DNA of 62,056 bases, filler included, from Stramenopiles sp. TOSAG23-6 (Eukaryota), in NCBI GenBank assembly GCA_900128565.1. It is 15 parts of 15 records of this genome, joined end to end, with 100 filler letters (N's around TTAATTAATTAA, not from the genome) between each part and the next. Parts side by side here need not be neighbours in the genome. Positions count along the whole stretch, not along the records: positions 24,980 to 29,026 come from LT637283.1; 14 more parts are not named here. One strand, given 5' to 3'. Under the pieces are notes generated by a model. The model was given only the letters and a program-made list of their open reading frames with translations, was not told the DNA's origin and did no database searches. Shown piece by piece: positions 5,170-42,982 of the stretch (position 1 is its first letter; the number at the start of each line of letters is the position of its first letter). A program made the position numbers and the translations under genes.

Positions 5170-7496
5170 TTAATCTTCTGCACCACATATATGCAATGCT
5201 GATTGAACTGTACCACTACATCGAGGTACTTTACTAATACGTTTTTGTTTATATTGGTTTATATAATTTTCATTGATTTTACGTTTTTCAATTTGTACTT
5301 TTTTCATACAAATTGAAAGTTTTTCAAAATTTTCAGGATAAAATACATCAACACAATTTCCTAAATGTTTGTATATAAAACGGCTCAATCGTCTCATATT
5401 TGTCCCTTGACCATGTACTAATACTACACTACTAGGTTTAGTATACCGAATGAATCTCATAATACCTTCATGAGTTGTAAAAAATATTACAAAAATTTGA
5501 TTTTTTTTGTTAGAATTTTGTACGAAAAAAAAAAAAAAAATTGAAANTTNAAAATTTTGAAAAAAAAATAAATTCGAAATTCATGATGAAAACGTACATG
5601 GTCTGTATGATTGCTCCATCCACTACTGATTTCTATATAACAACGTAATTTTATATTCTTTCCAGATGGCAATTGAATAGTTTTATATGGTAAATGTGAA
5701 AATTGATTTTTTTGAGTATCCATTTGAAGATTGCATTTAATTTTTGCATTGAGTGCATTCAGAGATTTTGATAATCCTGCTAATTTATATGCAACTGTAC
5801 CTGCTGCACTATACCCTGGTAAAATGATCATTGTTGTAGGATCTTGACCCCATCGTTCAAGTGCCTGTAATGCTGTGCCATTTTCTAATGTTTTTGGCCC
5901 GGCAAACAAAACTTGTGGAGATGTTTCAAGATTTGTTTCGGAGTTTTTTTCAAGATTTTTTAAAACGTGTGGAGATGTTTCAAGATTTTTTTCGGAGTTT
6001 TTTCTATAATATTTGTTATGAAATCCATAAAATGGTTTTAATTTCTGTAATGATAATGTAGTTGCATCAATAGTTTCATCATTTTTTGTATGTTTTGCAT
6101 TTTTTGTATTTTCATCATTTCTTGTATTTTTTATATTTTTTGTATTTTCATCATCTTTTGTATTTCTTGTATTTTTTGTATTTTCATCATCAATATCTGT
6201 TAAAACATGCTTCATAGGAGTAGGTTTGTGTCTATTCCATCGTTCAAATACATGATATAATTTCATTGCTTTTTGACTCAACACACCCGACACATATAAT
6301 GGCACATTTACACGAAATCTACTAAAATATTTACCTAATAAAATTGACATGGGTTGAATGCATCCAGTAGCACTACAAGCCACTAAAACACGACCTTTAT
6401 TCATATTTGTATTACATTTTGTATTTATATCAAATTTTGTATTATTTTGTCGTACATTCGAACACACATCTCCAACAACATTAGAATATACTTTGTTAAT
6501 AAAATTTCTATTTCGATGCAACCTAGATGCATGTATTTTGGAAAAATATTTCAAAAAAAATCTAAAAAAATGTGTTAGGTACAAAATTTCGTACGAAAAA
6601 AAAAACAAAAAAAAATTAAAACATACATGTGTTGCCATACTAAATGTTGCCTCACTAATGAGAACATCAGGACGTAATGGTGTATGTATTGGTACAAAAG
6701 CAGAACCTAAATGTGAATCCATTTGCATATCATAGTCTCCAGTATAAAGCACAGTTTGATTAGATTGTAGACATTCTATATAAAACATACAAGCACCTAA
6801 TGCATGTCCTGCATAATACGCCGTTATTTTTATATCATCAATAATAATAGAACCTTTTGTATTCAATTCAATCGTTTTGACTTTTGATAAACATGATTGT
6901 ATATCTTCAATAGAGTAAAAATTAGATTCAGACTCTCCAAAACGACGGACATGCAAATCACGATAATCATTGAGAATAAGACGCGATATTTCTTTCGTTG
7001 GTTCAGTCATGAGAATTGGTCCTTGATATCCATGTTTTTCAGTGTATCTAGGCAATGCACCCACATGATCGAGATGATAATGGGTCACTAAAACACAGCT
7101 AATACGTAAAGAAGAACAACGCGTAAAGTCAGGGTAAATGTCACCTACAGACTTTTTTGTATGACAACCACAATCAAGCATGATGCTACGCCTGTTGTTT
7201 TTCCCGCCTACAGTCACGAGAATACATGAACGTCCAACGTCTTGTCCACCACCAAGTGGGAGTATATCAATCGTAGGGTGTGCAGATTTGTTTACTGGAC
7301 GAAAATTTGTCTCCTCGTTTTGACTCGTGGTAGAATTTCCATTTTCATTAGTTCCACTTGTCGTTCTATTTTCTACCTTTCGCTGACGTTTCTGTACCTT
7401 TCCACTTTGACTTACACCCTTCAATGATACATTCCGCTTGCGTTTGTCTGTTTTACTAATTGGTACTACTTTCCAACGAAACGATTTCATTGACAA
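5170..7496 (-). CDS. INTS11: Integrator subunit 11 / CPSF73-family metallo-beta-lactamase beta-CASP nuclease; introns 6531-6626 and 5470-5597
   Basis: PLGGGQDVGRSCILV, MLDCGCH, THYHLDHVGALP, AGHALGA, YTGDY. After splicing, SNHTDH|EGIMRFI..PSSVVLVHG matches the family SAHADAKGIM..LVHGE spacing. Confidence 0.8.
5470..5597 (-). mobile_element. Introner-like element / GT-AT intron (INTS11)
   Basis: CAT|GTACGTTTT...TTACAACTCAT|GAAGGT; removal joins two ORFs in frame. Confidence 0.85.
6531..6626 (-). mobile_element. Introner-like element / GT-AT intron (INTS11), 96 nt, no in-frame stop
   Basis: CAT|GTATGTTTT...TACGAAATTTTGTACCTAAC...CCAAAATACAT|GCA. Confidence 0.85.
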
Positions 7497-8338: not shown

Positions 8339-10157
8339 CAACATTAGCTATCACAACACTATTAAAAACAGGGAGTGAAAATTCTATTGATAGACTCATT
8401 AAACAAATTTCATCCTTTATGTCAGAAATTGACGATGAGCATAAAATTCGTGTCGTGGCAGCCATTGAAGAATTAGTGGTGAAGTACCCGAATAAACACA
8501 TTATATTGCTGAATTTTCTATCGAGTATATTACGCGAGGAAGGCGGTTTTCAATTTAAAAGCTCTATTGTTAGTGCTATTCTACGTGTGATGGACATCAT
8601 CCCAGAAACAAAAGAATCTGCTTTATTCCATTTGTGTGAATTTATAGAAGATTGCGAATTTCCTAGATTATCAACGCGGATTCTATATCTACTTGGGGAA
8701 AAAGCCCCATTAACCAGAGCACCAGAAAAATATGTTCGTTTCGTATTTAATCGTGTGATTCTCGAAAAGCCTCTAGTGTATGTTTTATTCATTTCGTACG
8801 AAATTTCGTACCTAACAATCATCCATTTCAAAATTTATTTCAAAATTTATTTCAAAATTTATTTTTTTGTACTTATACCTAATCCAAAATATTTTGTACC
8901 TAACAATTTTTGTTTTTGAAAAATATTTTTTTACAGGTTATTCGTGCTGCTGCAGTTTCGGCGTTAGCGAAATTTGGTTCTAAAGTAGAAAGTTTACGCC
9001 CCTCAATAGTTGTTCTCTTACGTCGTTGTCTTCATGATGAAGACAATGAAGTACGAGACCGTGCAACAGTAGCTTACAATCTTTTGGAAAGTCATTCTCA
9101 TTTAGCATCACAATTTGTTGTGAACGATTTATCGCAGAGCTCTGAAGCACTCGGTCGCTCTCTCCAAATATATTACGCTCATCCAGTACCCGGTCCTATT
9201 ACTTTAGAATCTCTCCCTGTTGTGGAGGAACGCGTAGTAGCACCTGTGATGACGAAAAAAGATATGGAAGAGTCACATCTTTTAGGTACTTCATCTTCTA
9301 TGAAAACCACATCATCCTCTGCGAAGGTTGCAAGTGAAGAGCTAAAGAAACTGTATGAAATTCCTCAATTTGCAAAGGTTGGTACATTGGTTAAATCTTG
9401 TAAAGCTGTTGCTTTATCTGCTGCTGAAAGTGAGTTCGTCGTTCATTGCACAAAATATATATTTGAAAATCATGTGGTATTTGCCTTTGGGATCACAAAC
9501 ACTCTTGATGATGCCTTATTGGAAAATGCCGAGGTCAGAATGGAAGCGGATGATGACGAAGTCTTTCCAAATGGAGGTGAACCAAAAGAATGTATTCCTG
9601 CAGCTCGGTGTTTATTTAACACGAAATCTATTTCTTATGTCATGATGCAACGTAATCCAGATGCATTTGACAGTGTTAATTTTGCTTGTGACCTTCATTT
9701 TACTAGTCGAGATATTGACCCTGATTCTGGCGAACTTGATGAAGATGAAGAAGGTGAAAAAGATGAATTTCCTCTTGATAGTTTGAATGTAACACTTGCG
9801 GATTTTATAGTTGAAACCTATGTACCTAAAGGAGAATTCCGAAAAACATGGGAGGAAATGGGAAAAGCTGGAGAAGTTCTTGAAAAATTTGCGCTAGATT
9901 TTAAGACACTTCAAATTGGTGTGAGTAAAATTATCGATCAGCTTGGGATGGGAGTTTGTGAAAGGTCGGATAATGTTCCTGCGGATGCTCGGTCACATAA
10001 TATTTTTCTAGCGGGGACACTATCAGGAACTGCTCAAGTACAGCTTTTGTTACGAGGTAACCTTAGTGTTGGTTCTTCTGGTTGTGTGCTAAAAGTGATG
10101 GTTAGATCTGAGGATCCTACTATCAGCCAGTTGGTGATTGACTCAATTAGTTCATAA
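8339..10157 (+). CDS. COPG: Coatomer subunit gamma (5'-partial); intron 8778-8941
   Basis: [70 protein letters not shown]; appendage domain at the C-terminus. Confidence 0.95.
8778..8941 (+). mobile_element. Introner-like element / probable GT-AT intron (gamma-COP)
   Basis: GT|GTATGTTTT...GTACGAAATTTCGTACCTAAC...ACAGGTTAT|T CGT gives ILEKPLVRAAAV. A GT-AG alternative (8776-8936) adds one residue. Confidence 0.75.
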
Positions 10158-13132: not shown

Positions 13133-16100
13133 ATGTCGCGTAAACAATTGGATTTCGCCGTAGTTGGTGCAGCTCTTGGCTCAGTTACAAATGATGCAAC
13201 TTCTGCCCATCAGGGAGGTAGTCAAGTTACTGCTTCGCCAGTTGACATAGATAGTAATACAGTTTCGTTAGATGGAGATACTGCCAATACTAATATATTA
13301 GATGTAAGTTCGTCTTTCCACCATAGAGATGATGTATACTATTACCGACGTGACCCCCCACTAAGTGCCTCCGAGAAAATGCTTTGTCGAGCTCAGTGGC
13401 TACGTTGGGTCAACTTTGTTGCCCAACGTAAAGTTGAATGGTCTCAACTCATTCGAGCTAATAGTCATTATGAGTATATCATATATAGAAGTTACTGGCG
13501 ACGCTGGATAATTTATTTACGCTGGTGGAGGGAAAATCAAAAGCATAGACGTCGTCTTTTACTTTGGGCGGAGGACAATGCGGTTAATATGTCCCAAAAA
13601 GTCGTGAAACGACGTTATTTTTTACGTCTCGCCCAAGCCGTTCATAACTCTCATATAAAATCTAGAAATAATATAAAAGCATTACAACATTGGGCTAATC
13701 ATCTGTGCCGTTCAATCTTTAGAAAGTGGCAGGNTTGTGTTACCAAAAGTTTGGAAGAAATTCATAAATCAGATGTTCTCCAAACAAATCATGACATTCG
13801 ACATAAACGTCTATTTATGAATATTTGGCGTGAATCATTTTTCAGTATATTAAAACGACGTAAGCAAAATAAAGCAGCATTTTGGCATAGATATAATACA
13901 ATTATGAACAAAACACTGTGCCAATGGCGTGAATATGTAAATTATAAAAAATATTATCAACAACTAGATAGAACTGCAACGATACATTATAAAATATCTC
14001 TGCTTCGATATACTTTTTCATGTCTTAGCCAAGGCATCAGAAAGAAACGCGCAATACAATGTATTGCTAATCGTGTTCGCTGTTGGATGAGATATGTACG
14101 TTTTCATTATAAATTTCAATTTTATTTTTTTCATACGAAATTTTGTACCTAACAAAAACTTTTGAGTGTGTTTTTTTTTTTCACAATACATGTATCTTTA
14201 TTGAATGCATTTATAACTTGGTCAGTTAATATAAAAAAGAAATTTCTTTTGACAACTCTGCAAAATATGGAAAATAGAATTATTATTAGACGAAAACAAG
14301 ATGTATTCCATACATGGTACGAATATTATAAGGAACAGCAATTGGAGTCAACTGCGAAAACCTTTTATAGCTGTAGGCGTAAGTACGTTTTCAAATTGAA
14401 TGTTTTACATCATTTTGTTTTTCATACGAAATTTCGTACCTAACGAATTTTTTGAACAAAAATAAAAAATATTTTTTCACAGTACAAACGTCAATGTTTA
14501 CGGGCCCTTCATTTTTATACAAAGAAAATACAACATAATGCCATGCAAATGAGATTAGCTGAAGTATATAGACGTAGAGCTTTACTTGGTGGAGCAATGA
14601 TTTTATGGCGAGTATGTATGTTTTAGGTTTTTTTCAATTTCGATTTTTTTTTCATACGAAATTTTACACCTAACGATTTTTTTTTGAAATATTTTTCCAA
14701 AATACATTTGTTTGTCGATGTACTTCTCCAGAAATAGATTCTAATTGTCAGAATATTCCCATGACTGATGACTATGAAAAAATGAATAAAAAGAAGAGCA
14801 TTAATAGAGATTTACTAATGAAAGTGAAGGTATCAGAAAAAAATATTCCTGGAAAAAATAAACAAACGCTCAAAGCAAGTTATATTAACACTTGGGATGA
14901 AATCCGTCAGAAGCAAAACATGACTGAAAGATTGTGTTATCGCAATCTCCTTCGACGCATCTTCAAACATTGGCAGATTGGTGCTGAGTGCTCTAAAGTA
15001 GATAGGCGTCGGATGTTGCAAGCTGAAGGACATGTACGTTTTCAAAAACCAATTTGGAATTTACTTGTTTTCATACGAAATTTTGTACCTAACAAAAAAA
15101 ATCGGAAAAAAAATATTTTCCGACAATACATTTTCATTTACGTCGGCTCTCGAAGGCATTAATTTCATGGCAGTATTGGAACAAAACAAGGCAGAAAAAA
15201 AATCTTTTGAAAAAACAGGCCATTAAACAATACCAGTATCATTTACTTGTTCAAACTTTACAAAGATGTACGNTTTANTTTTTTTTTNAANAAAAAAATC
15301 GAATTTATTTTCATACGAAATTTTGTACCTAACAAATTTTAGTTTTTTTGTTTTGAAATATTTTTTCATTATCCATGGAGATCTGCTGTAAAATTTATGA
15401 AGAGTCAATCTCAAATGATTTCTCTTGCCACTGAACATCATTATTGGTATCATGCTAATGTTAGATTTCGTCAATGGAGAGTCTGGGCAGCGAAACGGGT
15501 GATGAATCATCAGGAAAATCAACGTGCATACTCAATGTGGCGCAAAAACACTATCCATAGATATATTGATTTTTGGTACAATTATACAATTGCTAGACTG
15601 TCTCAACAAAAAGAGGAAACAAAACAATTAGAATGGGCTCAAGGTATACTTTTAAATAAACGTATATTCCGTATATTCTCTGCTTGGGCAGAGTGGAATC
15701 GCCATAGATTAGTAAAGAACGTTGCAAAAACAAGAGCAAATAGATACTTTGAAACGCGATTAAAAAAAAAGGTTTGGATCACGTGGCAGCTTTTTGTTTC
15801 CTCAATATTAGCGAGTAAATTGAGATTAGTACAATCCAAAAGGCTATGGAAAGTAAATGCACAAAAACGAGGTTTTGTGTGTCTACAAAAATATGTTTCT
15901 ATGCGCAAATCGATGCGATTCTGTCGCGAAAAGTCTAAGAAATTTCATATTTTGAATACACTGAATAAAGCTTTCTCTGGATGGAAACATCGAATAGAAC
16001 TGTGTCATTGGCAATTTGCTAGAGAGAGAGATGCACTAATGCGACGACGTCGTGCTTTACGGGAAGAAGGGGCGCGGCGTTGGTTGAGCTGGGGTCTCAG

Positions 16101-16747: not shown

Positions 16748-19700
16748 TTATAAAAGATGCCTTATATCATCTGTGGGCCAGGGACTCAATGGGGGTACTT
16801 TTGTTCCTGACCATATCTTATTAATATTTTTATTATGCTTTGCATATTTTCTCGATTTTCTCCTTCGAGACACTTTCTTCTTCAATTTCATTTTCTTACT
16901 ATTGAACCCAGAGTTTTCTTTCCAATCAGTTTCAGTCATAGTCTCTTCTTCACCAGGTAAATGATCTTCAACAGGATTACTTTGTATTGTATCACTAAGT
17001 AGAGCGTTCCATGTATTGTGGGGAAATATTTTAAAATTTTGAGAATCGTTAGCTATAAAATTTGGTACAAACAAAATTGGAGTACAATTCAAAAGAACGA
17101 ACGTACATTCTTCTTCATCGGCAGTTGATTTTTCTAAAACGCTCACTTTCAAATCCCAATACGATTTCGATGTTGAATCATTATTAACTGTAGCATCTTG
17201 TATATTAGTAGCATGTAGATTATTGACGTTATCTGTATACATCTGTCGAATCAACTGAGCTTGTTTTTCCACTTTCAATTTATATTTCTCAGCTTGCTTC
17301 AACAATTTTTTTTCATAAAATATCTTTAGCTCATTGTTTTGCTTCTCCCTATCAGAAAGTTTTGTTTTATTCCGCCGTAAAGCGAGTAAAACATTCTTCT
17401 CTTTCGAAGCGGCAGCAATCAATGGACTCAATGATTTTACAGCTGAAGATGAATGTATTTTGGAAAAATATTTGAAAAAAAAATCGTTAGGTACAAAATT
17501 TTTATAAAAAAAAATGTTCGAATTTGAAAAAAAAAAAAAAACATACATGTATTTGTTGATTACCTTTGTCCTTGGAGATATCTTTTTCAGATATTTCATA
17601 ATTTGAAGAATTTGCCAGCCGTTGAACTGCAACAGAAATTGTATTTTCGTGTTCATTTTTAAGATTTTTTTTGCGTAAATTACGTATCGTTTGTTCATCA
17701 TCAAGTTTTTGATTATGTAATTCTTGAATCATGTTTTTATCTATCAAAGATTGATTGTGCAAATCTTGAAAGTCGCGAAGAATCGTAGATTTTTCATCAG
17801 TGTATTTTTTCTTTAATTTGGTCTCTAATTCAATTTTCATTTTTTCGCATTCCCTTTCAAGTTTTATGTCAAATTCATTTTTCATTATTTTACGTTCTCT
17901 TTCAAATTTCGATTTCAATCTAAATTCAACTGTCTTTACATTGTCTTCTTTAACTTTGTCTTCTTGAGAACGGATTTTCGAAAGAGTTGCTGCATTTTCC
18001 TTTGTTGTGATCAACGTAGACTTAACATGGTTCAATTCCTTTGTTAATTCTCTAATATCCTTCACATGTTGCTCAGCCATCTCTTGAGTCTCTTTTCTGT
18101 GGTTCATGTATAGTGAAAAATATTTTTTTTTACGAAAAAAAATGATTAGGTACAAAACAATTTTACGAAAAAAAAAAAAAAATGATTAGGTACAAAAAAG
18201 GTTTTACAAAAAACAAATTTGGAATGAATAATAAAAACTTACATAGATAAACAGTCAATTACTTCAGAAAATTTTGCTTCCGCATCTGTTTGAATCTGTG
18301 ACGATCTGTCATCCATCTTTTGATTAATTTCGCGCAATCGATTTGACTCATCAATTAAAATTTGCATGTATTTTGGAAAAATATTTCAAAAAAAAAATCG
18401 TTAGGTACAAACTTTCGTACGAAAAATAAATTCGAAATTGAAAAAAAAAAAAAACATACATGTCTTCTTTATGTTTTCGCTGGATTTGCTCAATAATACC
18501 TTCCATGTCTCCACCGTTTTTACGTGTCATTTTTTTTATATACTGTTTGTGTTCTTCAATTGTCGCTAAATATTTTTGTTCTTGCTCATCCACTGCATTT
18601 TCATGCTTCTTCAACAATGCATCATACTGAGATTGCCAATACTGCGCCGCATCTCTAGCGATCTTAATTTCTTTTGTATGTAATTCTATTGTATCAGAAA
18701 CTGCTGCTGCTTTATCACGCTCAAAAAACGTTTTCATTTTATCATTTTCTACTTGAAAAGCTTGACTTAATTTTTCTTTCTCATCAGCAAAAGATGAATG
18801 CATATCCTCCTTTTCACGCGTAATTTGCTCGCAATGCCTCTTTAAGTGTGAATATTTTGTTTCTAATTCATTCATCCTTACCTCAAACATTTTCAAAGAT
18901 TTCGCAGAGTTTTCATCTACGTGTTTTTTTATTTCAAATGCATATACTTTTTCTTTTTCACGTATTTGAATTTTGTGTATTTCTCTCAATTCTGATAAAT
19001 CGTTCAAGTACTCTTCAGATTCTATTTTCTGGTAATGTTTAGTTTCACTTAATTGATTTTCTTTATGCCGTACATCAGCCATAATTGATTTCAATTCTAA
19101 TTCATGTTCCTCTTTCAATGTAGCTTCAGTTTCTCTTAGATCATTTCGAAATTTATCATTAACACACTGGATTTCACTTTTATATTTTTCATGAAGCTTT
19201 GAAATTTCAAGTTTTCGTTTATTTTCTATATCTGCACATTTTTCCATTTGAGATTCCAATGATTCCTCTAAAATTTGTATATTACTATTACCCAAGCGAA
19301 GATTTTCTTCAAAATCTAAGATTTCTTGTTTGAGATTATGAATAATTGTTTCATTTTCTTTTGTCATTTTCTTCAATTTATTTGCGTCTTCCTCTTCAGA
19401 GAGTACATGTATTGTAAAAAAAAATAAATTCGAAATATGTTAGGTACAAAATTTCGTACGAAAAAAAAAATTTGAAATTCATAATGAAAACACACTTTTC
19501 TCAATGCAGAAATCTCACTATTTAGTTTTTTTCTATCTGTTTCGAAGTCACGAGCAAGAATTTGTAATTCTTCATCATGTTCTTTTTGTATATTTGTGAC
19601 TTCGTTTCTGTGAATTTTATTGACTTCTTCATATTGAGCATTGATTGTTTCCTCACATTCGATTTTCCATTCTGTAACTTGTTTTTCATGATTTTTCATA

Positions 19701-21064: not shown

Positions 21065-24000
21065 TTTCTTAAAGCATATATTCATCGCGCAAAGCATTAG
21101 CTAAATAATCAACCTTCAATTGCTCTTCGATATCTTCAAAATAAACAAATTCCATCTTTTGTATTTTGGAAAAATATTGCAAAAGAAAAAAATTTTAATT
21201 TGTTAGGTACAAAATTTCGTATGAAAAATAAATTCAATTTCAAAATTAAAAAAAAAAATAAAACATACATCATTCTCTAAAAATTGAATACGTTGCTGCA
21301 ATGCGCTAAGCGTAGCATCACATGTATTGTGAAAACATATTTAAAAAAAATTGTTAGGTACGAAATTTCGTATGAAAAAAAAATAAATTAGAAATTCATA
21401 TCAAACGTACATTCTCTATTGAAATGTTCCCAATGGCACGAAGAGCAAATTTAAAGACATCTTCGTCATAGTCTAATGTTTTTAAAGCTTCAAGCAATCG
21501 GCTTCCACATGCTTCATATACCTGTTCACGATAATCACCCTTTCCTTCTTCAGCAACCCAATTAGAAATTGTGTTTAATTGTTGTGAAAAAATATTTTTG
21601 TGTATAAAAATTTGTTAGGTACGAAATTTACTATGAAAAAAAAATCGAAATTGAAAAAAAATAAAACATACAATGTGGTGGCAACAACTTGTGTGATCAA
21701 TGGAAATGCCAGTAAAACTTGATCCAGTACTTTCTCGCCATTATATTTTGCTGCAAGTTCAACATTTGGACGACAACTAAATGTTAATTTGTTTATGATT
21801 GCTAGCATACGCATAATCAACTTATGATACTCACACAGACCTCGTTCCGCAATCTCTTTTATCGAATTTCGACGAGCTCGACAAGCTGGAGGCGTCCAAG
21901 AAATATCAGATGTTTCTTCATTATAATAATATTTGCGACCATTGTTAGAGTCGAATTTGACAACCCAAGATGTTCTTTCTACACTTTTCCTCGTGGGTGT
22001 TGGAGGTTTTACTGATGTCTTGGTCTTCGTTTCTACATTTTCGTAGCATTCCTTTTTAGTCTCGGGATCGTTGACAATTCGCCATCCTGCGGGGATGCCT
22101 TCACCACGCATTACTCGTTTAGGATGAGTATGAAAAGTGATTATTGCTAATAAAACTTCCATTGCACCAGCTTCACCAACACGTTGTTTCATTATATCAT
22201 GATCAGAAAATCGTTCCAGTAATAGTAATAATCTGTATAAAATATTGTCATTATCCATGTTTTCTCGGATAAGTTTCAAAACAGTAACTAATCCACCTTT
22301 TTCAATCATATGATCAAGATTATTTTGGTCCTTACCCATGAATGCAAGAACTTCTGAAACCGATGTAATAATATCTGGATCTTTAGCGGCTGCAGCTAGT
22401 AACTGCAAGGCAGCATGAATCACTTCAGGTTTTACAGAAGCCGATTGACCGTCATAGCTTTCAATAAGTCCTGCCTGGGCATTTAATGATTGCACAGCTT
22501 TACGATATTGAGCAAAATTGGAAGATGAAGTATCTGATCCTTCCGTCCAACATAAATTACCGGAATCGGCATCCATCATATCAAATACCAGGCCTGGAAG
22601 ATCATCGATGGCACGAAATACAAGTTCTTCTGATGAGAGTAAACCTGGAAAAGCCGACAACATTGCATTTAATAATTGCTTCCCTTTCTGTCGAACAACA
22701 ACATCATCATCCCAATTATGTACAAGATTATCAACTGATTTCACTGAAGTTTCATTAAGACCATGCGGTTTTAAATATGACATTTTTTCTTCTGTTGGAG
22801 AATCCATGTATTCAGGTGTAACTAAAGAGTGAAGTAGTTGTGTAGTTTCTTGACAATATTTTCGATCATTTATTCGATCTCCCTTGTCAATGGCAGAACA
22901 AACACCACCGAATACACCGACATCTAGAAGTGACTGACGTAAATCAGATGATGAAATATCATCAATGGACGCACCAGCTATTTTACGCAATACCGTACAA
23001 GCGGCACTTGCTGTAATAGAACAATCTTGATTCATAATATTCACAAGACTAACGAGAAATTCTGGATTTTTTGCTAGCAATGTAACTGCGTCGGTATCTG
23101 CTGCAGTAACAAATGCATCAAGTAATTGTCTTCGAGTTTTTACAAGTCGAGCGTGTTCTTCACTTCCACGGACTAAGTTACAAGCTTCTGGATCAGGATG
23201 TGAGGAAAATAATTCAGCCCATACATTCAATAACATATCAGTACTTGATGTAATGGAAATAGATCCATCCACATCTTTTGTAGCAATATCATTTGATAGA
23301 ACTCCAATTATTTGATCAATTAACATTTCGGATTTTACTGCATTTTTTTCACCCTCAATTTCATCTGACACAAGTTGTGAAGTAGCCATATGACATAGAA
23401 TGTTTCTCATTCTTTCATTTCCATCTTTCCTTTTCCGAACAAAAGACAATAACGCCTTTGTTGAATCTTGATGAACATTTACAAATGCATCGACAGCAGG
23501 TAATAATAAAGTCTCTCCATCACGTTTATTTTGATCAAGATCATCTAAAACACGTGATAGCAAAGATTCTGACACAGAAATACGTTCATCCGTACCAACT
23601 TTACCACTAGCAAAGCTACTCGATCCAACAAACTTCAATAGATCTTCCATCTTTGAACTAGATCGTAAAAAATTCCAGATTGCATCATTCGACACAGCAG
23701 TAGGTATCCCATGAAGAGCTGCAAGTTGACTACTTGACAGTGTACTTGCATCACCTCGCATTGCGGTGGTTAATACTAATTCCGCTGATGTTTCTGTAAA
23801 TGTGCCAAGTGCTGCTAATTTTGAAAGAATCTGTGTGGCATGTATTTTGGAAAAATATTTCAAAAAAAAAAATATCGTTAGGTACAAAATTCCGTACGAA
23901 AAAAAAATTATTTACTAAAAGAAAAAAAAAAATAAAAACATACATGTATCGTGATAGAATCGCGATCTGCTTTATCAGCAACGTCTAATGCCAGAAATTC

Positions 24001-24879: not shown

Positions 24880-25067
24880 NNNNNNNNNNNNNNNNNNNNN
24901 NNNNNNNNNNNNNNNNNNNNNNNTTAATTAATTAANNNNNNNNNNNNNNNNNNNNNNNNNNNNNNNNNNNNNNNNNNNNAATATTTCAAAAAAAAAAACT
25001 AAAATTTGTTAGGTACAAAATTTCGTACGAAAAAANAAATTCAAATTTTAAAAAAAATAAAACATAC

Positions 25068-26958
25068 ATTCCCATATCAGCAGATTTTTCATTATCTTTT
25101 TTTTCTATACCATCTTGATCTATTCCTGATGCTCTAGAACTATTTGATAATGTACTATGCAGAGCATCTTCATCTTCAGTGGCATATGCATCAATTAATG
25201 CAGAAACACAATATGTATTGTGAAAGAATATATTTTGTTTTATAAAATTTGTTAGGTACAAAATTTACTATAAAAAAAAAAACATAAATTCAAAATTGAA
25301 AAAAACATACATGCAGCATCCGCAGCTGATATTGCACTGCCGTAACCTTTAAGAGAATGTCGATGAAATGAAGAATAAAAAGGATTTTCTAAACCGAAAT
25401 CGTGTGCGACAGCTTCTAACTGAGCTCTTAATCGTCGCTTAAGTTTAGAACTCATAAAACTGAATTTTTGTTTACATGCTGCAAGTGGGATTCCTGTCTT
25501 TGCAAGACATTGCTCCAACTTTGCACGACCTTCAGATGTCCAAATTGCCAGTTTTGTCGCAATATAATCCGAATATAACATATATTGTAAAACAAAAATA
25601 TATCAAATTGAAATCGTTAGATTTTTTTATCATTGCAAAAATTGAAATCATAAGAATTCGAATAGGTTTTAAAAAAAAAATGAATAATACATTTGAAAAA
25701 AACTTGAAAAAAAAAAAATAAATTAGAAATTCATAATGAAAACATACATTGAATCATAAAGAGACCAATGCCTATGAAGCATGAATTTATACTCATTCTC
25801 TTCAAAAACTATCCGTCCATGCTCAGCTGCTTTAACAACTGTACCATCTTCTACAGTTAATTCTGTAGCACTTAGAGCATTCTTAGTATTGACTTCTTGT
25901 TGATAGTCAGTGACGAGCTCTATATACGCATTTCGTGTCATGTTTTGATTTAGATACTGATGTGTTACTCCTACTACAGCGTACCACAATAAATCATTGT
26001 TAACATTATTCATTTGTTGTGCCAAGATGTATGCCAAAGAGGCTGCAGGCATACCTTGTGACGCAAGGGTACCACCAGAATAGTACATGTATTTTCAAAA
26101 AATATTTCAAAAATTTGGAATTCGTTAGGTACGAAATATTGTATGAAAAATAAACAAAAATGAAATGAATATATGCAAACATACTCTGAAAGTTTTTCTC
26201 TCCTTGCACGCTTCATCTTTCTAGGACCTAAGACATCCTTGCTACCATTTTCTGTTTTCCTTCGCTTTCGGCTGTTTTCATCAAAGTTTTCATCGTCACT
26301 CATATCTGATTCATCTTCACTTTGACTATTTGGATCTAAATCAATATCTGAACCATCACTAGGAAGATCTCGGAGTTGTAAAGTACCATCATTAAATACT
26401 ACCACACTTTTCCCTTCTGTGTAAATGTTGGCCAGATGAACAGGACGATGGCTATCAAGTACAAAACAACTGATTCGACGGGGAAGACTGAGGATTTCAT
26501 GTAAGTTTACAACTCCACCACAGTTTAACATGATAATTGAACGAAGTTCATCGCTATCTTTTATAAATTGTTCATTCAAATGCCGAAGATCTCCTAAACC
26601 ACAGACTGGCATTATTTTGTACTGTATATTATCACCTTTTAGTAATGCCTGTATTGTTTGCGTATAATAAAGAACTCTATTAGTATTATTTGGTTGGTCA
26701 AAATGTGCTTAAATCCAACTCCAAAGAAAAAAAAAAGAATACCAAAAAAAAAAAGACAGTGAAAACACCAAAGAGAAACATATGACACATCATTTACTAT
26801 TCATTTGCATAAATACTACATACCCTGAGAATACGGCAAGCGCAAAGTGCGTCGCAGTCAGAAGCCACACATATTAGAACTGTGCAGCCACCACTATCTC
26901 TGGCATTACGTAAAATTTGTTTATAGGCCTTTTGAAAATTGGGTTTATCAAAAAGCAT
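25068..26958 (-). CDS. CDC45: DNA replication initiation factor CDC45 (3'-partial); introns 26649-26823 (GT-AG), 26087-26184, 25580-25747, 25213-25310 (GT-AT)
   Basis: DCDALCACRIL, LNCGG, LDSHRPVHLANI, LLWYAVVGVT, FMLHRHWSLYDSM|LYS, ISAADAA|YCVSAL. Confidence 0.95.
25213..25310 (-). mobile_element. Introner-like element / GT-AT intron (CDC45)
   Basis: GCA T|GTATGTTTT...CACAATACAT|AT TGT. Confidence 0.85.
25580..25747 (-). mobile_element. Introner-like element / GT-AT intron (CDC45)
   Basis: TCA AT|GTATGTTTT...TACAATATAT|G TTA TAT restores HWSLYDSMLYS. Confidence 0.9.
26087..26184 (-). mobile_element. Introner-like element / GT-AT intron (CDC45; 5' flank GA)
   Basis: TCA GA|GTATGTTTG...GAAAATACAT|G TAC TAT gives SEYYSGG. 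Confidence 0.8.
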
Positions 26959-27224
26959 GGAGGCTAAATATATTAAAGTGCCGCCCAAGATAGAACTAGG
27001 GGACAGTCGTAATTTGATGAACTGTCACCAAATGCCTTTCAAGGAGAAAAAAATGAGGATTCCACGGAATGTATCTATCAAGTGGATCGAATGATGAAGA
27101 GAGAAAGTCTTTTGGGATTTAATTTGATGGATTTGGATTTTTGTGCGAATATTTTGCCGCTCAAAAAAAAAAAAAATGTTTTTTTTGCTTATTTTTATCT
27201 AAATATTTTTATATTTCATTTTCT

Positions 27225-28289
27225 TTAATAACGACCAGAACGCCAAGACCCAGGCCACAAACTAGAACTTGAATCATCATCTTTAACAATTTGGGATTCA
27301 TTGTTAGAATTTACTACTATTGGTTTTACTATTTTTCTTGACAAATTAGAAATCCTGATATTTTCTCCTTTTCCCTCAATTGTTAAATCATTCTCAAAAC
27401 CTTCATCTACATTTTTATTATCATAACTTTTATCTACATATTCATAATCTACGTAAACATCTGCGAGATATAATCCATCAGCAGGTGCCATTGGTGGTGC
27501 TAAAGTCCGGTCTTTAGCATCAATCAATTTTTCTAATTCATCTAAACTCATCTGGTTCGAACCAATTGCATGAAGGACACCAACCATATTTCGTACTTGA
27601 TGATACATGAAAGAAGGCCCTTCTACAGTTACTTGAAATGATATATTACCTTCAACTGTAACAGGCGCGAGTTCTACTTTAACTTTGGATATAGTTTTTA
27701 TAGGTGATGGTGCTACACAACCAGAGCTTCGAAACGAAGACCAGTCTCTATGCCCGACCATTATTTTGGCTGCTGCCTGCATTTGTGTTAAACTGAGAGT
27801 GTTTCGGGTAATCCACGCCCGCTTTGCACTAAATATAGAACAGCTTGTCTCATCTGCATTGATTACACTAACAATTTGATATATGTATTTACGCTTATAC
27901 ACCCGGTGTCTTATCTGAAAGTCAGTAGGGACTCGTTGTACACCGAGTAGAGCAACGTTGGTGTCTCCCCCTCTATGAAGGTGATTGTTGATGCCTCGTC
28001 GAAGTTCTCTATCTAGGAAAGGACCATGTTTCGAAGCATTTCCATATTTATCAAGACGATATATATCAAAGGAAAATACATTACGCAACGCGTGTACGCC
28101 TGCATCAGTACGAGAGCTACCACGGATGTTCAATAATTCATGAGACACGGGTGAGAAATTAAAAATTGCGTCACTTAAAGCTTGTCTAATACATCGATAT
28201 TTATAAGAACCACTTTCCCATCCATGATAGTTGGAACCAGCATACCGAACACCAGCAATATACCTTGCTAATCCTACAGTTGGCTGCAT
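27225..28289 (-). CDS. truA: tRNA pseudouridine(38-40) synthase, TruA family
   Basis: YAGSNYHGW, GSSRTDAGVHA, GHRDWSSFR, GPSFMYHQVRNMVG, APADGLYL. Confidence 0.95.
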   Translation of the reverse strand: MQPTVGLARYIAGVRYAGSNYHGWESGSYKYRCIRQALSDAIFNFSPVSHELLNIRGSSRTDAGVHALRNVFSFDIYRLDKYGNASKHGPFLDRELRRGINNHLHRGGDTNVALLGVQRVPTDFQIRHRVYKRKYIYQIVSVINADETSCSIFSAKRAWITRNTLSLTQMQAAAKIMVGHRDWSSFRSSGCVAPSPIKTISKVKVELAPVTVEGNISFQVTVEGPSFMYHQVRNMVGVLHAIGSNQMSLDELEKLIDAKDRTLAPPMAPADGLYLADVYVDYEYVDKSYDNKNVDEGFENDLTIEGKGENIRISNLSRKIVKPIVVNSNNESQIVKDDDSSSSLWPGSWRSGRY

Positions 28290-28507
28290 TCTTAAAAGAA
28301 AACTTATTCCTAATTCGAACTAGCTCTACTGAAGTGTTATACGAAAATAATTGACAAGCAAAGGTGATTTCTGTTATGACTGAATTACTTTGAACCCGGT
28401 ACACCCGTTTTAAAAAAAATTTGTTAATGAAAATTTAATGAAATATTTTGTATTTAATCATAACTAAAATTTTATTCTTCCCATTTGTAAAAATATATAA
28501 TACCACC

Positions 28508-28946
28508 TCATTTATCTTCATTAGTGACTATAACAGAGACTGGAGTAACCCAAGGATGGTCATCTTCATCTAACATATCAGCTGCAATTTTCGTGTTTGA
28601 TGGATATTTATAGTACGATCGTTCTCTTTCTCTACTAGCGTGCCATAAAGTCCACTGGTTATCTCCTATTTTATTACATAACAACCACACTCCACCCTGA
28701 CCATCAGTCACCATCTTTGTGCTCATTGGATAATTATAATGTGAACTTTCACCGTCACGATTTGCGTGCCACTGTATTGTTAGAGTATTATAAGTAATGT
28801 AGTTAGATAATAGTTAGATAATAGTGACTATTTTAGAGGGATAATATGATGTTAAGAATACATCAATTATATAGGTGACTTACAAGTGTCCATTGATTCT
28901 CGCTCGAATTCCCACTTGTACATAGAAGCCATACACCTCCTTTCCC
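28508..28946 (-). CDS. 3' part of an unknown repeat protein; canonical GT-AG intron 28772-28883; introner 3' end at ~28947-29025
   Basis: Two similar units, GKGGVWLLC...NQWTL|WHA and GQGGVWLLC...NQWTLWHA, fix the splice junction. Confidence 0.65.
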
Positions 28947-29140
28947 ATGTATTTTGGAAAAATATTTTAGAAAAAAAAATCGTTAGGTACAAAATTTCGT
29001 ACGAAAAATAAATTCGAAATTGAAAANNNNNNNNNNNNNNNNNNNNNNNNNNNNNNNNNNNNNNNNNNNNTTAATTAATTAANNNNNNNNNNNNNNNNNN
29101 NNNNNNNNNNNNNNNNNNNNNNNNNNTTTTTAATTTTTTC

Positions 29141-32282: not shown

Positions 32283-32318
32283 GTATGTGTTTTTTTTTTT
32301 TTTTTTTTTTTTTAATTT

Positions 32319-32355
<37 letters not shown>

Positions 32356-32416
32356 AAACTAAAAAAAAAAAAAAAACTAAAAAAAAAAAATTTTGAAATA
32401 TTTTTCCAAAATACAT

Positions 32417-33071
32417 CTTGGTCGATTACTTCCTTTAGTGCGAAACGAATCTGTATTACAAGCACCACTACCTACTGATGCAAACTTAGACTTATTTTCT
32501 GCAGGATCACCACTACGAGCAGCAACTGCGTCGCGAGGAACTGCGGTGGTTGTTAATAACCTTTCTGCTATTCTTCGCCGTGCATGTATGTTTTATTTTT
32601 TTTTTTTACCGAAAAATATTTCAAAATTTTTTTTTTGGTATGAAATTTTCATAGAAAACAATTTTTTTTTTTTGAAACTAAAAAACTAAAAAAACTAAAA
32701 AACTAAAAAAAAAAAAAAACTAAAAAGAAAAAAATTTTGAAATATTTTTCCAAAATACATGTTTTCTAACACTTAGTGAACGCCGATCCCCAGAAGCAAT
32801 GGCGCATATGATACCTGAATGGTTCACGTATAATAATATATGTATGTTTGATTTTTTTTCAATTAGGGTTAGGGTTAGGGTTAGGGTCTACATATTTTTT
32901 TTTTTTTGTACCTAACAATTTTTTTTAGATTTTGTTTTTTTTGAAATATTTTTCCAAAATACATACAAAAGTGACACAGAAAGTAAGAATTGTTTAGCAT
33001 CGGAAATTGTGATACTTTTTCGAAGATTGAGTCGCTCTCCGTTGTGGCGTCAACCTTTAGCTGTATTATTT
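32417..33071 (+). CDS. Internal exons of an unidentified protein that is not HBS1; introners 32586-32760, 32842-32964 and from 33072
   Basis: LGRLLPLVRNESVLQ...LRRAC|FLTLSERRSPEAMAHMIPEWF...; frame continues across repeat removals. Confidence 0.5.
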
Positions 33072-35982: not shown

Positions 35983-37240
35983 TTGTTCTCGTCACCTGCA
36001 TCAGATTCTCCGGAGCGAGACTCCAAAAGTACCGATGGGTCAACTCCCCCTTTATTAGTATCAGATTCTGCGAATGCTACTCCAAGTCCTGGAACATCAC
36101 CAGATTCTAGATCAAGTAGTATTACTCCACCTAAAAAGAATGCGAGTATCACACCAAATATTGATACTCAAGCTTGTCCGCCAAAACCCGTGTGCGTCAC
36201 GACGCAAAACGACCTACACNAATATANTNCACAGAATGTCGTATTAAATGACACGTGCGCGACTGATCCTACAGTCTCTCAGACAACAAAACAAAGTGCG
36301 ACGGAAACATTGAACCATTCAAATGATTCTCACATGCCGCATTTAGGTTCCAACGATTCAAATATGCCAAATGTAGGTATGTTTCAAACACAAAAATTGG
36401 TAGATAACCCTAATGTCAATGGTGTCAATTTACAACAAATATTTGAAAACTCTCAACGAACAAACTTAACACCAATAGCTGACCAAGAAGTGGCCCACTT
36501 CGATAAAATGCCTCCCAGACCATTTACAAACACATTTCAAAACCAACATCCAATGGAATATGCATCAATGAATGGAATACCAAATGTTGCAACAAGTTTT
36601 ATTCCAGTTCTGAATCAGAATTCCATGAACGGAAATTCCATGAGTTTTAATAATGCGAACCAACCCCCTACAAATTTTAATCCTCAATTTCCATTTTCAT
36701 CTTTTCCAAATGGAAGTATGATACATCCAACTAATGGGAATATGATTAATCCCATCATGATGCAACACCTCTTGAACCAAAATATAAATCCAAATTTTAT
36801 GCCTGTTCCAACCAAGATGCCAAATATGCCAAATGTAGATGTTGATCTTAGTAGATTGTGTTCATCGTTACCATCCTCATGCTTTAAGTCGCCTTTGCCT
36901 TTGAATGAAAACAGTCAAAATGCTCATAATGTAACATATCCTTTCCATGTATTACAATCTTCACAACTAAATAGCCCAATGAAACAATTTTCTCCAACAC
37001 AAACTCCTATACAAATTCCGAGTTTGTGTCCACAATCAACAAAACATGTATGTTCCATGTTTTTTGAAATTTTTTTGAAATTTTTTTGTAAAAATTTTTT
37101 TTTTTTATTTTTTACTAAATATGTTTTTTTTTTTAAATATTTTTCTACAATACAAGAGTTCCGAGCAATGGGTGCTTTGAGTAGTCTTAGAAACACAAAC
37201 TGGGCACAAGTAAAAGGAGGGCTTTCTGGTCTTGGTAGTA
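35983..37240 (+). CDS. Low-complexity N/P/Q/S-rich protein (start uncertain, 3'-partial); introner 37048-~37155 and another from 37241
   Basis: Long ORF containing family repeats. Confidence 0.55.
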
Positions 37241-39345: not shown

Positions 39346-41344
39346 ATGAAGAAACTTTTTGTGATAGATACTAAATATCATACAAAAGGAAAGGTAATTT
39401 TTGCTTGGCAAGGTGATGGCCATTTTCTTGCAACGTCAGGTGAAAATGGAATTGTTCACATCTTTGACCGACAAGGAAACGATGTGGATGAAATTGCTAT
39501 CCATGGAGATGTATGCACATCCTTAGAATGGGATAAAGATGGTCAATATTTAGCTGTTTTACAAAAAGGTAATGGCGTTGTTACCTTATGGAATCAATCC
39601 ACTCGAAGTATNCAAAAAATCGATACTAATTTAAAAAATCCGACATTTCTTTCTTGGTCCATAAACGGTCCTCAACTTGCTATTGGTACTGAAAAAGGGA
39701 ATTTATTATTATACAGAAAGGATACAAGACGGATGATACCTATATTAGGTAAACATACAAGACAAATATCATGTGGTTGTTGGTTATCGAATAATACATT
39801 AGCGTTAGGATCAGATGATGGGTCAGTTACGCTAAGCACATCGAATGGTGATACTTTGGATCATTTTGATGTTGGTGGACGTCCAGTGGCAATTCAATGT
39901 GTTGTACAAGACTCATCCTTAGGGTTGACACAAGACATTCAATCTACACAAAAAATAGATGAAAAAAAAGATTCTTTTGGTTCAGATTCAAGTGAAAATA
40001 ATACAGGAGTTGCAGTTACAATTGATTATAACAAAATAATGTTATATAAAGATTTAAGCCTAGGTAAGAAAGAGAAAAAAAGAAAACCAAAAGAAATTCA
40101 ATTTCAAAAACGTTATGGAGCAATTGTTAATTCTGTTTGGTATGCACAAAATTCTTTAATTGTCGCCTTTTCTAAAGGTACATTTTATTTATTTATTTTT
40201 TTTTGTATGAATTTGAATTTTTTTTTCATACGGAATTTCGTACCTAACAATTTTTTTTTTTTTTTTTTTTTTTTATTTTTTTTTTTTTTTTTTGTATGAG
40301 ATTTTTTTTTGTTTTTTTTCATACGAAATTTCGTACCTAATAAATTTTCAAAATTTTTAAAATTTTTTTCACAATATAGGATACACAATCATTGTCTCAA
40401 CAGAGGAGAATGACATTGGAACAGAACTGTTTTCATGGAAATTATTTGATGACCATTTGTATAACATTTGTTATAATACAAAATTAAAACGATTTGCTGC
40501 TCTTGGTGATGATTCATTGAAAATAATTGAATATAATGAAAATGAAAATATTTGGAAAAAAATATCAAATAATTCTATCCAATTAAAAAGTAAAAAATTT
40601 GGTACAGCAACTTCAATGTGTTTTTTTTTTTTTTTTCAATTTTTTTTTTTTTGTATGAATTTTTTTTTTTTTTTGAAAATTTTGTACCTAACAGATTTTC
40701 AAAATTTTTTTTGAAATATTTTTCCAAAATACATCGACTGGACAAATGATGGTCAGATTATTACACTTAGTACAAACACAGCCAATATTACATCATATGT
40801 TGCTACAATGTCAACTATAAATAGTACATTTGGTACAAAAATTTGTTATTGTTCATCATTACAAGAATTGGCTATTATTGACGTACGTTTTTAGTATGAA
40901 TTTTATTTTATTTTATTTTTTTTGTTTTTTGTTTTTTTTGTACGAAATTTTGTACCTAACAAAAAAAAAAAAAATATTTTTCACAAAATATGTACGACAA
41001 AACAATNNNNNNNNNNNNNNNNNNNNNNNNNNNNNNNNNNNNNNNNNNNNNNNNNNNNNNNNNNNNNNNNNNNNNNNNNNNNNNNNNNNNNNNNNNNNNN
41101 NNNNNNNNNNNNNNNNNNNNNNAATTTCGAAATTTTAAATTTTTTTTTTTTTTTTTTTTTTTGTACAACATTTTGTACCTAAACAACAAAAAAAAAATGA
41201 AATATTTGTTTACAATATTTGGGGTAGGAATGAATTCACATTTATGGTTTTATTATTGTACTAAAGGGGAATATAAGTTAGTGAGAGAGAGAGACTATCT
41301 TGGTACAGTTGAACATGTTTGTATTAGTACACAGTATGCAGCAG
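39346..41344 (+). CDS. WDR19: WD repeat protein 19 / IFT144 (3'-partial); introns 40178-40379 (GT-AG), 40618-40734 and 40883-40991 (GT-AT)
   Basis: MKKLF, FAWQGDGHFLA, LEWDKDG, QLAIGTEKGNLLLY....R.IPILGKHTRQI.CGCW, DWTNDGQ, VGMNSHLWFY, RDYLGTV. Confidence 0.9.
40178..40379 (+). mobile_element. Introner-like element forming a canonical GT-AG intron (AG duplication), duplicated core
   Basis: AAA G|GTACATTTT...CACAATATAG|GA TAC. Confidence 0.8.
40618..40734 (+). mobile_element. Introner-like element / GT-AT intron (WDR19)
   Basis: TCA AT|GTGTTTT...CCAAAATACAT|C GAC TGG gives SIDWTNDGQ. Confidence 0.85.
40883..40991 (+). mobile_element. Introner-like element / GT-AT intron (WDR19; 5' flank AC)
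   Basis: GAC|GTACGTTTT...CACAAAATAT|GTA CGA. Confidence 0.75.
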
Positions 41345-41612: not shown

Positions 41613-42982
41613 ATTACTTCAAAAAGTGAAAGTTGTGCAGTTACTGCAGTAGATTCCTCAATTCTATCGCGAATATCTTGAGATTTTTGTGATTCAATAG
41701 CTCGTATGAAATCAGAGGAACAATCTCTTTCAAGTAATACAGTTTCATGTATTCTGAAAAAATATTTTTTTTATAAAATTTGTTAGGTACACAATTTCGT
41801 ACGAAAAAAAATATAAATTTAAAATTAAGAAAAAAACTAAAACATACAGCTACCTCCGCCAGCTTTTGGTGATGGCGTCGTTGAAGTAAAAGACAGTTGT
41901 TGAAATGTTAGGGATTTTTTAGGAGTTTCCAAAGAAACCATATTCGAATCTGAATGTATTGTGAAAAAATATTAAAAAAAAAAAAAACTCAAATTTGTTA
42001 GGTACGAAATTTCGTATGAAAAAAAAATTAAATTAGAAATTCATATAAAACGTACATGTAATCGTCTTGACCTACGGCGACTATTTTTGTTATTCTTATT
42101 CACCCGTTTCGACATTGGAGTTGCAATTTCGATAAATTTTTCAACTTCATGTATTCAGGAAGAATATATCAAATTTGAAATTTGTTAGAGATGTTGCAAA
42201 ATTTGGATTATGTAAAACGTTAGGTACAAAATTTCGTATGAAACCAAAATTGATAATAAAAACGTACGTGAGAATTATCAATCAGAAAAATGTATGCGAC
42301 AATTGATATTAGAAGTACAATGTAAGCACTACTAAAATACAAATGAGTTCCAGTGCTATGAGCACCTTCTGTAGCAGCTTTCGTGATAACTTTTAAAATA
42401 CCCATGATAATCCCAGCAAAGCCAATTCCGCTGGATACTGCAGAAGTGTGCGCACCTGTACAACACCCTGCAATAGCAAACATGGAGCCTTGCACAACAG
42501 CACCACCAAATCCAACGAGAACGCCCATAACCATAATTTCCCAGAACTCTGATACACCATCTTTAGTTATTAAATATTGAGTAATAATACAAACACCAAC
42601 AAGCATAATTAGACCACCTACAACGTTAACTTTATGCGAAAACGGAAAGCCAAAAGCAGCACTAAGACCGAGAACAAAAATGTTCGGAGTAATTGAACCT
42701 GCCAGAATCCAAGGGATTGACCAGTCACCAAAAAGATGTTTGAAGGTATCAAAGCATTGAATATTATGTATGATATATATGAATTATAATAAATATGAAT
42801 AAATATAGCAATAATTTGGATGATGTATACGATGGTCCAAGAATTGTTACATACAGAAACGCATTGTATGGAGTCAATATCCCAATACCAAGAATAAAGA
42901 ACGCAAGTATTACAAAACGCTCTTTCTTTTTTGGAACGCTAGAAGTGTGCACTGGTATAGATAATGCTGGTGTTGATACCAT
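41613..42982 (-). CDS. Equilibrative nucleoside transporter (ENT/SLC29), 3'-partial; introns 42761-42854, 42149-42267, 41954-42055, 41747-41847
   Basis: FFILGIGILTPYNAFL|QCFDTF, GFGGAVVQGSMFAIAG, HTSAVSSGIGFAGI, LKVITKA. Confidence 0.85.
41747..42267 (-). mobile_element. Three introner-like GT-AT introns (41747-41847, 41954-42055, 42149-42267) in the ENT central loop
   Basis: GCT|GTATG..AATACAT|GAA; CAT|GTACG..AATACAT|TCA; CAC|GTACG..AATACAT|GAA. Confidence 0.8.
42761..42854 (-). other. GT-AT intron lacking the introner core
   Basis: TTT CT|GTATGTAAC...TACATAATAT|T CAA TGC restores PYNAFLQCFDTF, colinear with the ENT PWNAFITAVDYF pattern; no AG near the 3' end. Confidence 0.75.

Follow-up and report, generated by a model that had tools for sequence, protein, structure and literature searches.

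Where is an intron cut when its last two bases are AT? The question is raised by the CDC45 gene of Stramenopiles sp. TOSAG23-6, an AT-rich uncultured marine stramenopile. The stretch of DNA analysed here (62,056 nt, hereafter the window) carries in this gene, on the minus strand at positions 26087-26184, an intron with the surroundings ...AAACTTTCAGA^GTATGTTTGC...TACCTAAC...GAAAATACAT^GTACTATTCT or, with its borders spelled out, GA^GTATGTTTGC...CGTACCTAACGAATTCC...TTTTGAAAATACAT^GTACTATTCT, where ^ marks an exon-intron border. The initial annotation had read this intron as GT..AT with a U2-like donor, rather than as a U12-type AT..AC intron. Homology in CDC45 and in the coatomer gamma gene, together with RNA of a neighbouring intron, supports the GT..AT register. 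We think it probable that the intron is one copy of a transposon-derived introner family with GT..AT ends, removed by U2-type machinery that tolerates a base other than G at the last intron position.

The window is a pseudo-molecule in which contigs follow one another by decreasing length, the pieces lying 4168 down to 4124 nt apart. Fourteen linkers, each made of 44 N, TTAATTAATTAA and 44 N, join the pieces between 4071 and 58032, and adjacent pieces are not necessarily linked in the genome. Copies of the intron family were first located through the internal box TACCTAAC, on both strands and with one mismatch allowed; GT was not presupposed. All family counts given below refer to about 52.5 kb of non-redundant sequence, in which we find 33 complete copies and 15 half copies.

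Splice register in CDC45 and coatomer gamma

The GT..AT register and the register placed 2 nt leftward excise equal numbers of bases and differ in the dinucleotide that is retained, either the upstream one or the final AT. The reading frame therefore cannot separate them. AT stands on both sides in 22 of the 33 complete copies, which gives the same mRNA in either register, as the initial annotation had pointed out for an AT duplication. Thus, the register is decidable solely at copies with unequal borders, by comparison with homologues or RNA. The focal copy in CDC45 and a copy in the coatomer gamma gene have such borders.

Both flanks of 26087-26184 match CDC45 (Pfam PF02724, E 5e-33 and 1e-28). 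The codon that precedes YYSGG is GAG (Glu) under GT..AT and ATG (Met) under the shifted register. The downstream exon was searched against 1.84 billion representatives. Of the 150 matches listed, the 46 whose alignment starts at query residue 1 or 2 reveal the residue in front; these were kept and the other 104 dropped. In these 46 proteins, the column holds E in 16 cases, D and S in 5 each, R in 4, N, A and K in 3 each, Y and Q in 2 each, and H, M and L in 1 each. With E against M at 16:1, this comparison of protein sequences favours GT..AT. After removal of its three family introns, CDC45 can be aligned with P0002, its closest relative (71% identity over the query exon), without gaps at any of the three junctions. 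A near-length protein search for spliced fragments of the host CDC45 returned a sole match, with 59% identity. The host's public CDC45 model, P0001 (source label GSMAST32...), reads into the focal intron (..KLSEYVCIYSFHFC^MPAAS..), rejoins at ..MPAASLAY and then terminates within the next family intron, with 319 aa against 613 aa in P0002.

The second informative copy is located at 8778-8941. Under GT..AT, the coatomer gamma protein reads LE-KPL-V-RAAAV, with Val immediately before RAAAVS, and the shifted register places Ile at this position. Of 120 listed homologues, 109 fit the motif and 11 were dropped. The fourth residue after LE is V in 104 of these 109 listed proteins, I in 4 and F in 1; with V against I at 26:1, the homologues again favour GT..AT, and mouse COPG1 (5a1u) agrees with this reading. 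An in-frame canonical intron, GT8776..AG8936, can also be drawn. It yields KPLV-I, one residue longer, and was rejected since four residues separate LE and R in 109 of the 109 matching homologues; homology alone excludes it. The same spacing implies that the AG located five bases upstream of 8941 is skipped.

Read contigs were examined over 25037-29026, where the joint table was swamped by cross-mapping from other family copies. Contig 1 of metatranscriptome run X12 matches 25402-25581 over 180 nt with 0 differences, and its remaining 17 letters are those of 25750-25766. The contig thereby joins 25581 to 25750 and excises the neighbouring CDC45 intron, 25580-25747, precisely. Because the last five bases of this intron are TATAT, it ends as GT..AT, TG..TA or AT..AT, and never as AT..AC or GT..AG.

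These results bear on a different reading of the family, in which the left AT and the element are removed together as an AT..AC intron ending in AATAC, by U2- or U12-type machinery, and copies lacking the upstream AT are decayed or poorly spliced. First-base A and last-base C are a workable pair in both spliceosomes, and the 22 copies with AT on both sides fit either register. Two copies, 21268..21159 and 37048..37155, read AT^GT..AC^AA, in which AT..AC is perfect and an exon base has changed. We nevertheless hold this reading to be very unlikely. Both sets of homologues prefer the other register, and the RNA-confirmed intron 25747..25580 has AT, not AC, ahead of its final AT. Across the family, nine of the 33 copies would begin with GA, GT, AA, AC, CT, AG or TT, and seven would not end in AC. 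In addition, the donor hexamer GTAYGT would lie two bases within the intron, the U12 donor is found at none of the 33 copies, and the internal box stands 32-49 nt (71 nt once) from the end.

Anatomy and borders of the intron family

The family pattern is [AT]^GTAYGTTTT..TACGAAATTTYGTACCTAAC..AATAC-AT^, and the consensus of 25 aligned copies reads nnnnAT^GTATGTTTT..T-rich..TTTC(A/G)TACGAAATTTYGTACCTAAC..AAATATTTTT(C)CA(C/A)AATACAT^G. Most copies are 89-123 nt long, the maximum being 202, and pairwise identity among copies reaches 89%. All copies lie in the sense orientation relative to the flanking reading frames. Copies occur in at least 12 genes, including those for CDC45, coatomer gamma, WDR19, a nucleoside transporter, a beta-CASP nuclease and a translation GTPase. 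Among the half copies, 9 have the 5' part only and 6 the 3' part only. Their absent halves fall in N runs; the exception is the insert 32283..32416, whose two ends were treated as separate halves, the insert being a likely chimera.

When consensus bounds are applied, the flanking frames are joined across 27 of the 33 complete copies; four others (45753, 6626, 40883 and 21671) are uninformative as to frame. Five introns lie within a 983-aa frame, and five within the gene at 13736-16569. In that gene, the copy at 14383..14487 overlaps a canonical alternative, GTAAGT..CACAG, which breaks the frame.

The first two bases of the family-aligned introns are GT in 33 of 33 copies. The initial annotation had remarked that GT is invariant while the dinucleotide upstream of it varies, and the census bears this out, with AT upstream in 24 of 33 copies (73%, compared to 12% AT before any GT in the window). 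The six flanks other than AT that it listed are all present: GA at 26184, GT at 8778, AA at 19495..19407, AC at 40883 and at 42267..42149, and CT at 41847..41747. Its two AC cases are indeed synonymous third positions, GAC in ..AIID^V and CAC in ..DNSH^E. The donors are GTATGT in 18 copies, GTACGT in 11, and GTAAGT, GTACAT, GTGTGT and GTGTTT in one each; GTATGT or GTACGT thus accounts for 29 of 33 copies. These hexamers are those of host canonical introns.

At the other end, the final dinucleotide is AT in 28 copies, AA in 3, AG in 1 and TT in 1 (n=33; the TT boundary is uncertain). AG thus closes the intron in a single copy. The two preceding bases are AC in 26 of 33 copies, and the penultimate intron A is kept in 32 of 33. 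The 3' variants reported before, TATAT at 25580, GTTAT at 8941 and TTTAT at 24560, were recovered, and further ones occur as ATAT at 40991 and as CCAT at 15376 and 24782. The two host canonical introns checked by frame or homology, 26823..26649 and 28883..28772, end in CAATACAG. The family end CAATACAT aligns with it base for base, T replacing G.

The box TACCTAAC or a near variant is found in 28 of the 33 copies, and CTAAC is invariant in the 25 aligned ones. In 27 of the 28 boxed copies the box is located 32-49 nt from the 3' end, and in one at 71 nt. It may serve as the branch point. A 14-nt palindrome, TACGAAATTTCGTA, directly abuts the branch-like box (for example in the 26132-26145 region, and in the consensus), and its 3' arm overlaps GTACCTAAC; it may be a transposase site or form an RNA hairpin.

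The terminal inverted repeat of the element is about 6 nt only (ATGTAT/ATACAT). No transposase appeared in a Pfam scan of 50 frames, beyond which no search aimed at transposases was made. A metagenome scan with the internal box found a single locus, on contig L001, with a copy AT^GT..ACAT^G; the same box had zero matches in a viral collection.

The initial annotation took AT as the end of the intron. This stands for the 28 copies mentioned above, but the rule is not strict, as the last dinucleotide tends to copy the exon dinucleotide before GT. The two are equal in 25 of 33 copies: 22 are AT/AT, 14383..14487 is AA/AA, 40178..40379 is AG/AG and 21671..21577 is TT/TT. In 100,000 shuffles, at least three non-AT matches arose in 0.05% and at least two in 1.7%. 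Matching borders look like a 2-nt target-site duplication, usually made at AT, to judge from the copies aligned here, and a duplication with this preference would explain why AT precedes GT so much more often in the family than window-wide. A 3-nt duplication (ATG) was rejected, 12 of the 33 copies having no G after the 3' end. Reverse splicing was considered as a spreading route and fails to account for the AA/AA and TT/TT border pairs.

That the final dinucleotide (AT, AA, AG or TT) varies in step with the upstream exon dinucleotide could also mean that the register is not fixed: the position of the element would set the cuts, and each copy would use whichever register its flanks allow, or remove or keep both duplicates. 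AGs located 5-7 nt upstream of the 3' bound are passed over at 8778 and 14383, as such a mode would have it. Moreover, two copies that miss the frame under consensus bounds can be mended in this way, 21412..21322 (91 nt) by removing both AT and 41847..41749 (99 nt) by keeping both dinucleotides; the two misses could be due to assembly error or to a different splice choice. We judge a register without fixed position to be unlikely, because one rule fits 27 of the 33 copies whereas the two exceptions demand opposite repairs, and the alternative cuts are without RNA support. One-base errors are plausible here, as the assembly has many single N and contig breaks.

Removal of the family introns

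The features of U2-type introns present in the family are a GTRNGT-like donor and a CTRAY-type box upstream of a pyrimidine-rich tract; the AG end is absent. Four properties of the copies point to the major spliceosome: the host-like donor and box, the distance of 32-49 nt between box and end, the lack of a U12 donor, and ends that are not stably paired. U2-type removal is therefore our reading of the motifs. The U12 donor RTATCCTT occurs at 9 sites in the non-duplicated 53.8 kb and at no family donor. An Rfam scan of the 62-kb window gave 0 hits for any family, which is uninformative on the rest of the genome.

Each copy brings a GTAYGT donor, the branch-like box TACCTAAC beside the palindrome TACGAAATTTCGTA, a T-rich tract and, at its 3' end, AATAC, which matches the host 3' splice-site context CAATACAG except for the last two bases. 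Under the preferred reading, insertion would duplicate two target bases, usually AT, and the removed intron would consist of the element and the right-hand duplicate, GT....AATAC-AT, such that the original coding sequence is restored exactly. The U2-type spliceosome would make its 5' cut in front of the invariant GT and its 3' cut behind the base aligned with the G of a normal AG, its second splicing step accepting T, and sometimes A, as the last intron base (A-T or A-A for A-G). Tolerance of a non-G last base may then be a general property of this machinery. A stronger form of the idea, to which we give an even chance, is that the last intron base is no longer read as G in the host lineage, the 3' cut being defined by AATAC plus any two bases (AT, AA, perhaps TT).

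A non-spliceosomal route would not need an AG end at all. Cutting could be guided by pairing of the intron ends, as proposed for the nonconventional introns of euglenids, or the element could be removed from DNA; short inverted ends (GTAY/RTAC) and a direct repeat at the borders would suit such a process. The invariant GTAYGT and CTAAC box match host canonical introns, however, and no stable end pairing is predicted: the fold calculated for the CDC45 copy with its flanks, the one copy folded, has a z-score of -1.5, the intron ends are not mutually paired, and the last intron bases and the 3' flank are unpaired in the minimum-energy fold. Furthermore, DNA contigs of run X3 carry the CDC45 intron, whereas the RNA contig lacks the neighbouring one. 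Such a route appears extremely unlikely.

We give hardly any credence to the view that the family is an artefact of a poor assembly of single-cell type or of dead genes, that is, collapsed repeats or pseudogenes. It is true that the window is made of contigs of about 4.1 kb joined by linkers, three of them identical letter for letter (49685-53808, 53809-57932 and 57933-62056, 4124 nt each). It is also true that many contigs start or stop inside family copies, as expected if the repeat breaks assembly, and that in 32283..32416 a GTPase exon is followed by an unrelated one. On the other side, X3, an independent metagenome run, confirms the CDC45 copy and its flanks at the DNA level, long open frames are regained across up to five copies per gene, and spliced CDC45 is gapless against a relative 71% identical to it, with one copy spliced in RNA.

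Several observations weigh against the reading that we favour. On one of its sides, the X12 contig reaches just 17 letters past the joint, and a spliced contig for 26087-26184 itself was not found among the read contigs over 25037-29026. Contigs of the RNA libraries X6 and X7 span the focal intron unspliced; these look like DNA carry-over and are uninformative either way, as the canonical intron 26649-26823 is also unspliced there. Concerning the borders, the 3' bound of the TT/TT copy was picked by frame and an AT-ending alternative lies at 21568, while an AG/AG pair is equally expected of any canonical intron. As AT is self-complementary, it is impossible in most copies to tell a duplication from the end of a repeat. 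Consensus bounds put 41847..41747 and 21410..21322 one base out of frame. Finally, of the three copies that end in AA, those ending at 21159 and 37155 have AT upstream, exactly as AT..AC predicts.

Table 1 Positions in the window of the CDC45 features and of other informative family copies
Feature	Positions	Strand	Details and evidence
Focal family intron in CDC45	26087..26184	-	98 nt, GA^GTATGT...ACAT^GTAC; donor G 26184, last T 26087
GT, first two intron bases (donor GTATGT)	26183..26184	-	GT in 33/33 complete copies
GA, last two exon bases	26185..26186	-	Kept under GT..AT, completing GAG (E)
TACCTAAC, branch-point-like box	26124..26131	-	38 nt from 3' end
AT, last two intron bases	26087..26088	-	Context AATACAT; host canonical ends CAATACAG
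Upstream CDC45 exon	26185..26648	-	Pfam CDC45; alignment to P0002
Downstream CDC45 exon (YYSGGTLASQ...)	25748..26086	-	Pfam CDC45; alignment to P0002
Second CDC45 family intron, AT^GTATGT...ACAATATAT^G	25580..25747	-	Spliced in one RNA contig
Third CDC45 family intron, AT^GT..ACAT^	25213..25310	-	Gapless against P0002
Canonical CDC45 intron, non-family, GTATGT..TACTAAT..CAATACAG	26649..26823	-	Junction CRILR^ALLKGD in P0001 and homologues
Coatomer gamma family intron, GT^GT..GGTTAT^	8778..8941	+	Homology; AG 5 nt upstream unused
Family intron with AA before GT, ending in AA	14383..14487	+	Open frame across 5 introns with these bounds only
Family copy in WDR19, canonical AG^GT..ATAG^	40178..40379	+	Family-aligned
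Family intron AT^GT..ACAA^, last base A	21159..21268	-	Frame
Family intron AT^GT..ACAA^, last base A	37048..37155	+	Frame
Family intron AA^GTGTGT..ACAT^	19407..19495	-	983-aa open frame across 5 introns
Family copy CT^GT..ACAT^	41747..41847	-	Consensus bounds give in-frame TGA; 99 or 102 nt needed
Family copy AT^GT..ACAT^	21322..21410	-	89 nt by consensus, frame missed; 88 or 91 nt needed

Two candidates were set aside. The stretch 6790..6684 was rejected as an intron, since the open reading frame at 5553-7541 is open across it and excising its 107 nt leaves no open frame. The insert 32283..32416 (AG^GT..AT, translation GTPase) was dropped as a decisive register case: it links the GTPase exon (..GEFEAG) to one from an unrelated protein, the window lacks the continuation that the GTPase should have, and an assembly chimera is likely. 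As for the two off-frame copies, their repairs are opposite in kind, with both border dinucleotides kept in 41847..41749 and both removed in 21412..21322.

Four telomere-type TTAGGG units lie at 32863-32887, inside the family intron 32842..32964, and a degenerate TAGGGTT run is found at about 33740-33760, some 0.9 kb from them. The three identical 4124-nt pieces hold a COG5 gene and the 5' end of a family copy. A microbial-type rhodopsin gene is located at 43354-44779 (Pfam Bac_rhodopsin, E 3e-27). The match breaks off at position 161 of the 224-position profile, and another frame, overlapping the first, carries on past it, which suggests a frame break or an additional intron near 44650. Two genes, at 4173-4922 and 47739-49013, encode Sel1 tandem repeats (36 aa; DNA period 108 nt) followed by a MYND zinc finger.

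Comparison with known introners and non-canonical introns

Introners are the best current explanation of bursts of intron gain. If the stronger form of our reading is right, a transposon that duplicates 2 nt could make a working intron at almost any site, and about 0.8 copies per kb would amount to tens of thousands of GT-AT introns genome-wide. The host would then be a natural system in which 3' splice-site recognition at the second step has been rewired, with 5' site and branch site conventional. Such an intron occurs about every 1.3 kb, so that damage is likely in most proteins predicted for the lineage; public gene models for the host do break on family introns, as CDC45 P0001 illustrates. 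Our literature search, which did not extend to supplementary files, turned up neither a GT-AT introner family nor non-canonical introns described for MAST-type stramenopiles. Non-canonical introns are unmentioned in the passages of PMC5778133 that describe gene prediction. Introner surveys, as outlined in PMC12130899, begin from annotated introns and accept AG and AC 3' ends, and surveys of this design would miss the present family.

Among spliceosomal introns with unusual ends, those of the U12 type have a donor RTATCCTT and a branch site TCCTTRAC about 10-26 nt from the 3' end. Most family copies can formally be read AT...AC, and their branch-like box is strongly conserved, as in U12-type AT-AC introns. 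The family box is TACCTAAC, however, not TCCTTRAC, it stands 32-49 nt from the end, no RTATCCTT donor accompanies it, and homology and RNA put the family cuts at GT and after AT. The major spliceosome also uses ends other than GT-AG, in the U2-type AT-AC introns, if the first and last bases match permissibly, G with G or A with C. In contrast, the G-first, T-last pair that we infer for the family is not known to be a permitted one.

The introners of Micromonas pusilla and Aureococcus anophagefferens, as described in PMC11282704, number in the hundreds to thousands. They are short and nearly identical, lie at unrelated sites in genes and have short inverted ends, and a target-site duplication of 3 nt completes their canonical AG splice site. 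In these introners, so described, excision of the element together with one duplicate restores the coding sequence, as it would in the present family. Their 3-nt duplication and AG end differ from the putative 2-nt duplication, usually of AT, and the AT end (sometimes AA) of the stramenopile family.

A parallel for the 3' end comes from the tunicate Fritillaria borealis. By the accounts in PMC11282704, PMC13326754 and the preprint of the latter, its non-canonical introns derive from miniature inverted-repeat transposable elements (MITE) and mostly start with AG and end with AC or AT. They are numerous and lineage-specific, duplication of an exon motif gives rise to their 3' end, and they are processed by a major spliceosome in modified form. 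A non-canonical 3' end supplied by duplicated exon sequence would thus be common to both systems on these accounts. The tunicate introns have lost the 5' GT, whereas the present family, in a stramenopile protist, keeps GT within a GTAYGT-type donor and deviates in the last base only.

The dinoflagellate Amoebophrya is, like our host, a marine protist with repeated non-canonical introns and direct repeats of a few nt across their borders. As reported in PMC7789003, its introners have 8-20-nt inverted repeats that pair their ends and no common terminal dinucleotides, and U1 is not detectable. In contrast, the ends of the present family are not predicted to pair stably and its splice signals are conventional save for the last base.

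In the accounts of these systems cited above, known introner families either retain GT-AG or, as in Fritillaria and Amoebophrya, depart from the rule at both ends. What is new here is the repetition of a dinucleotide at the borders of most family copies. A textbook donor and branch site combined with an AT end isolate a single variable, namely how the second catalytic step recognises the last intron base.

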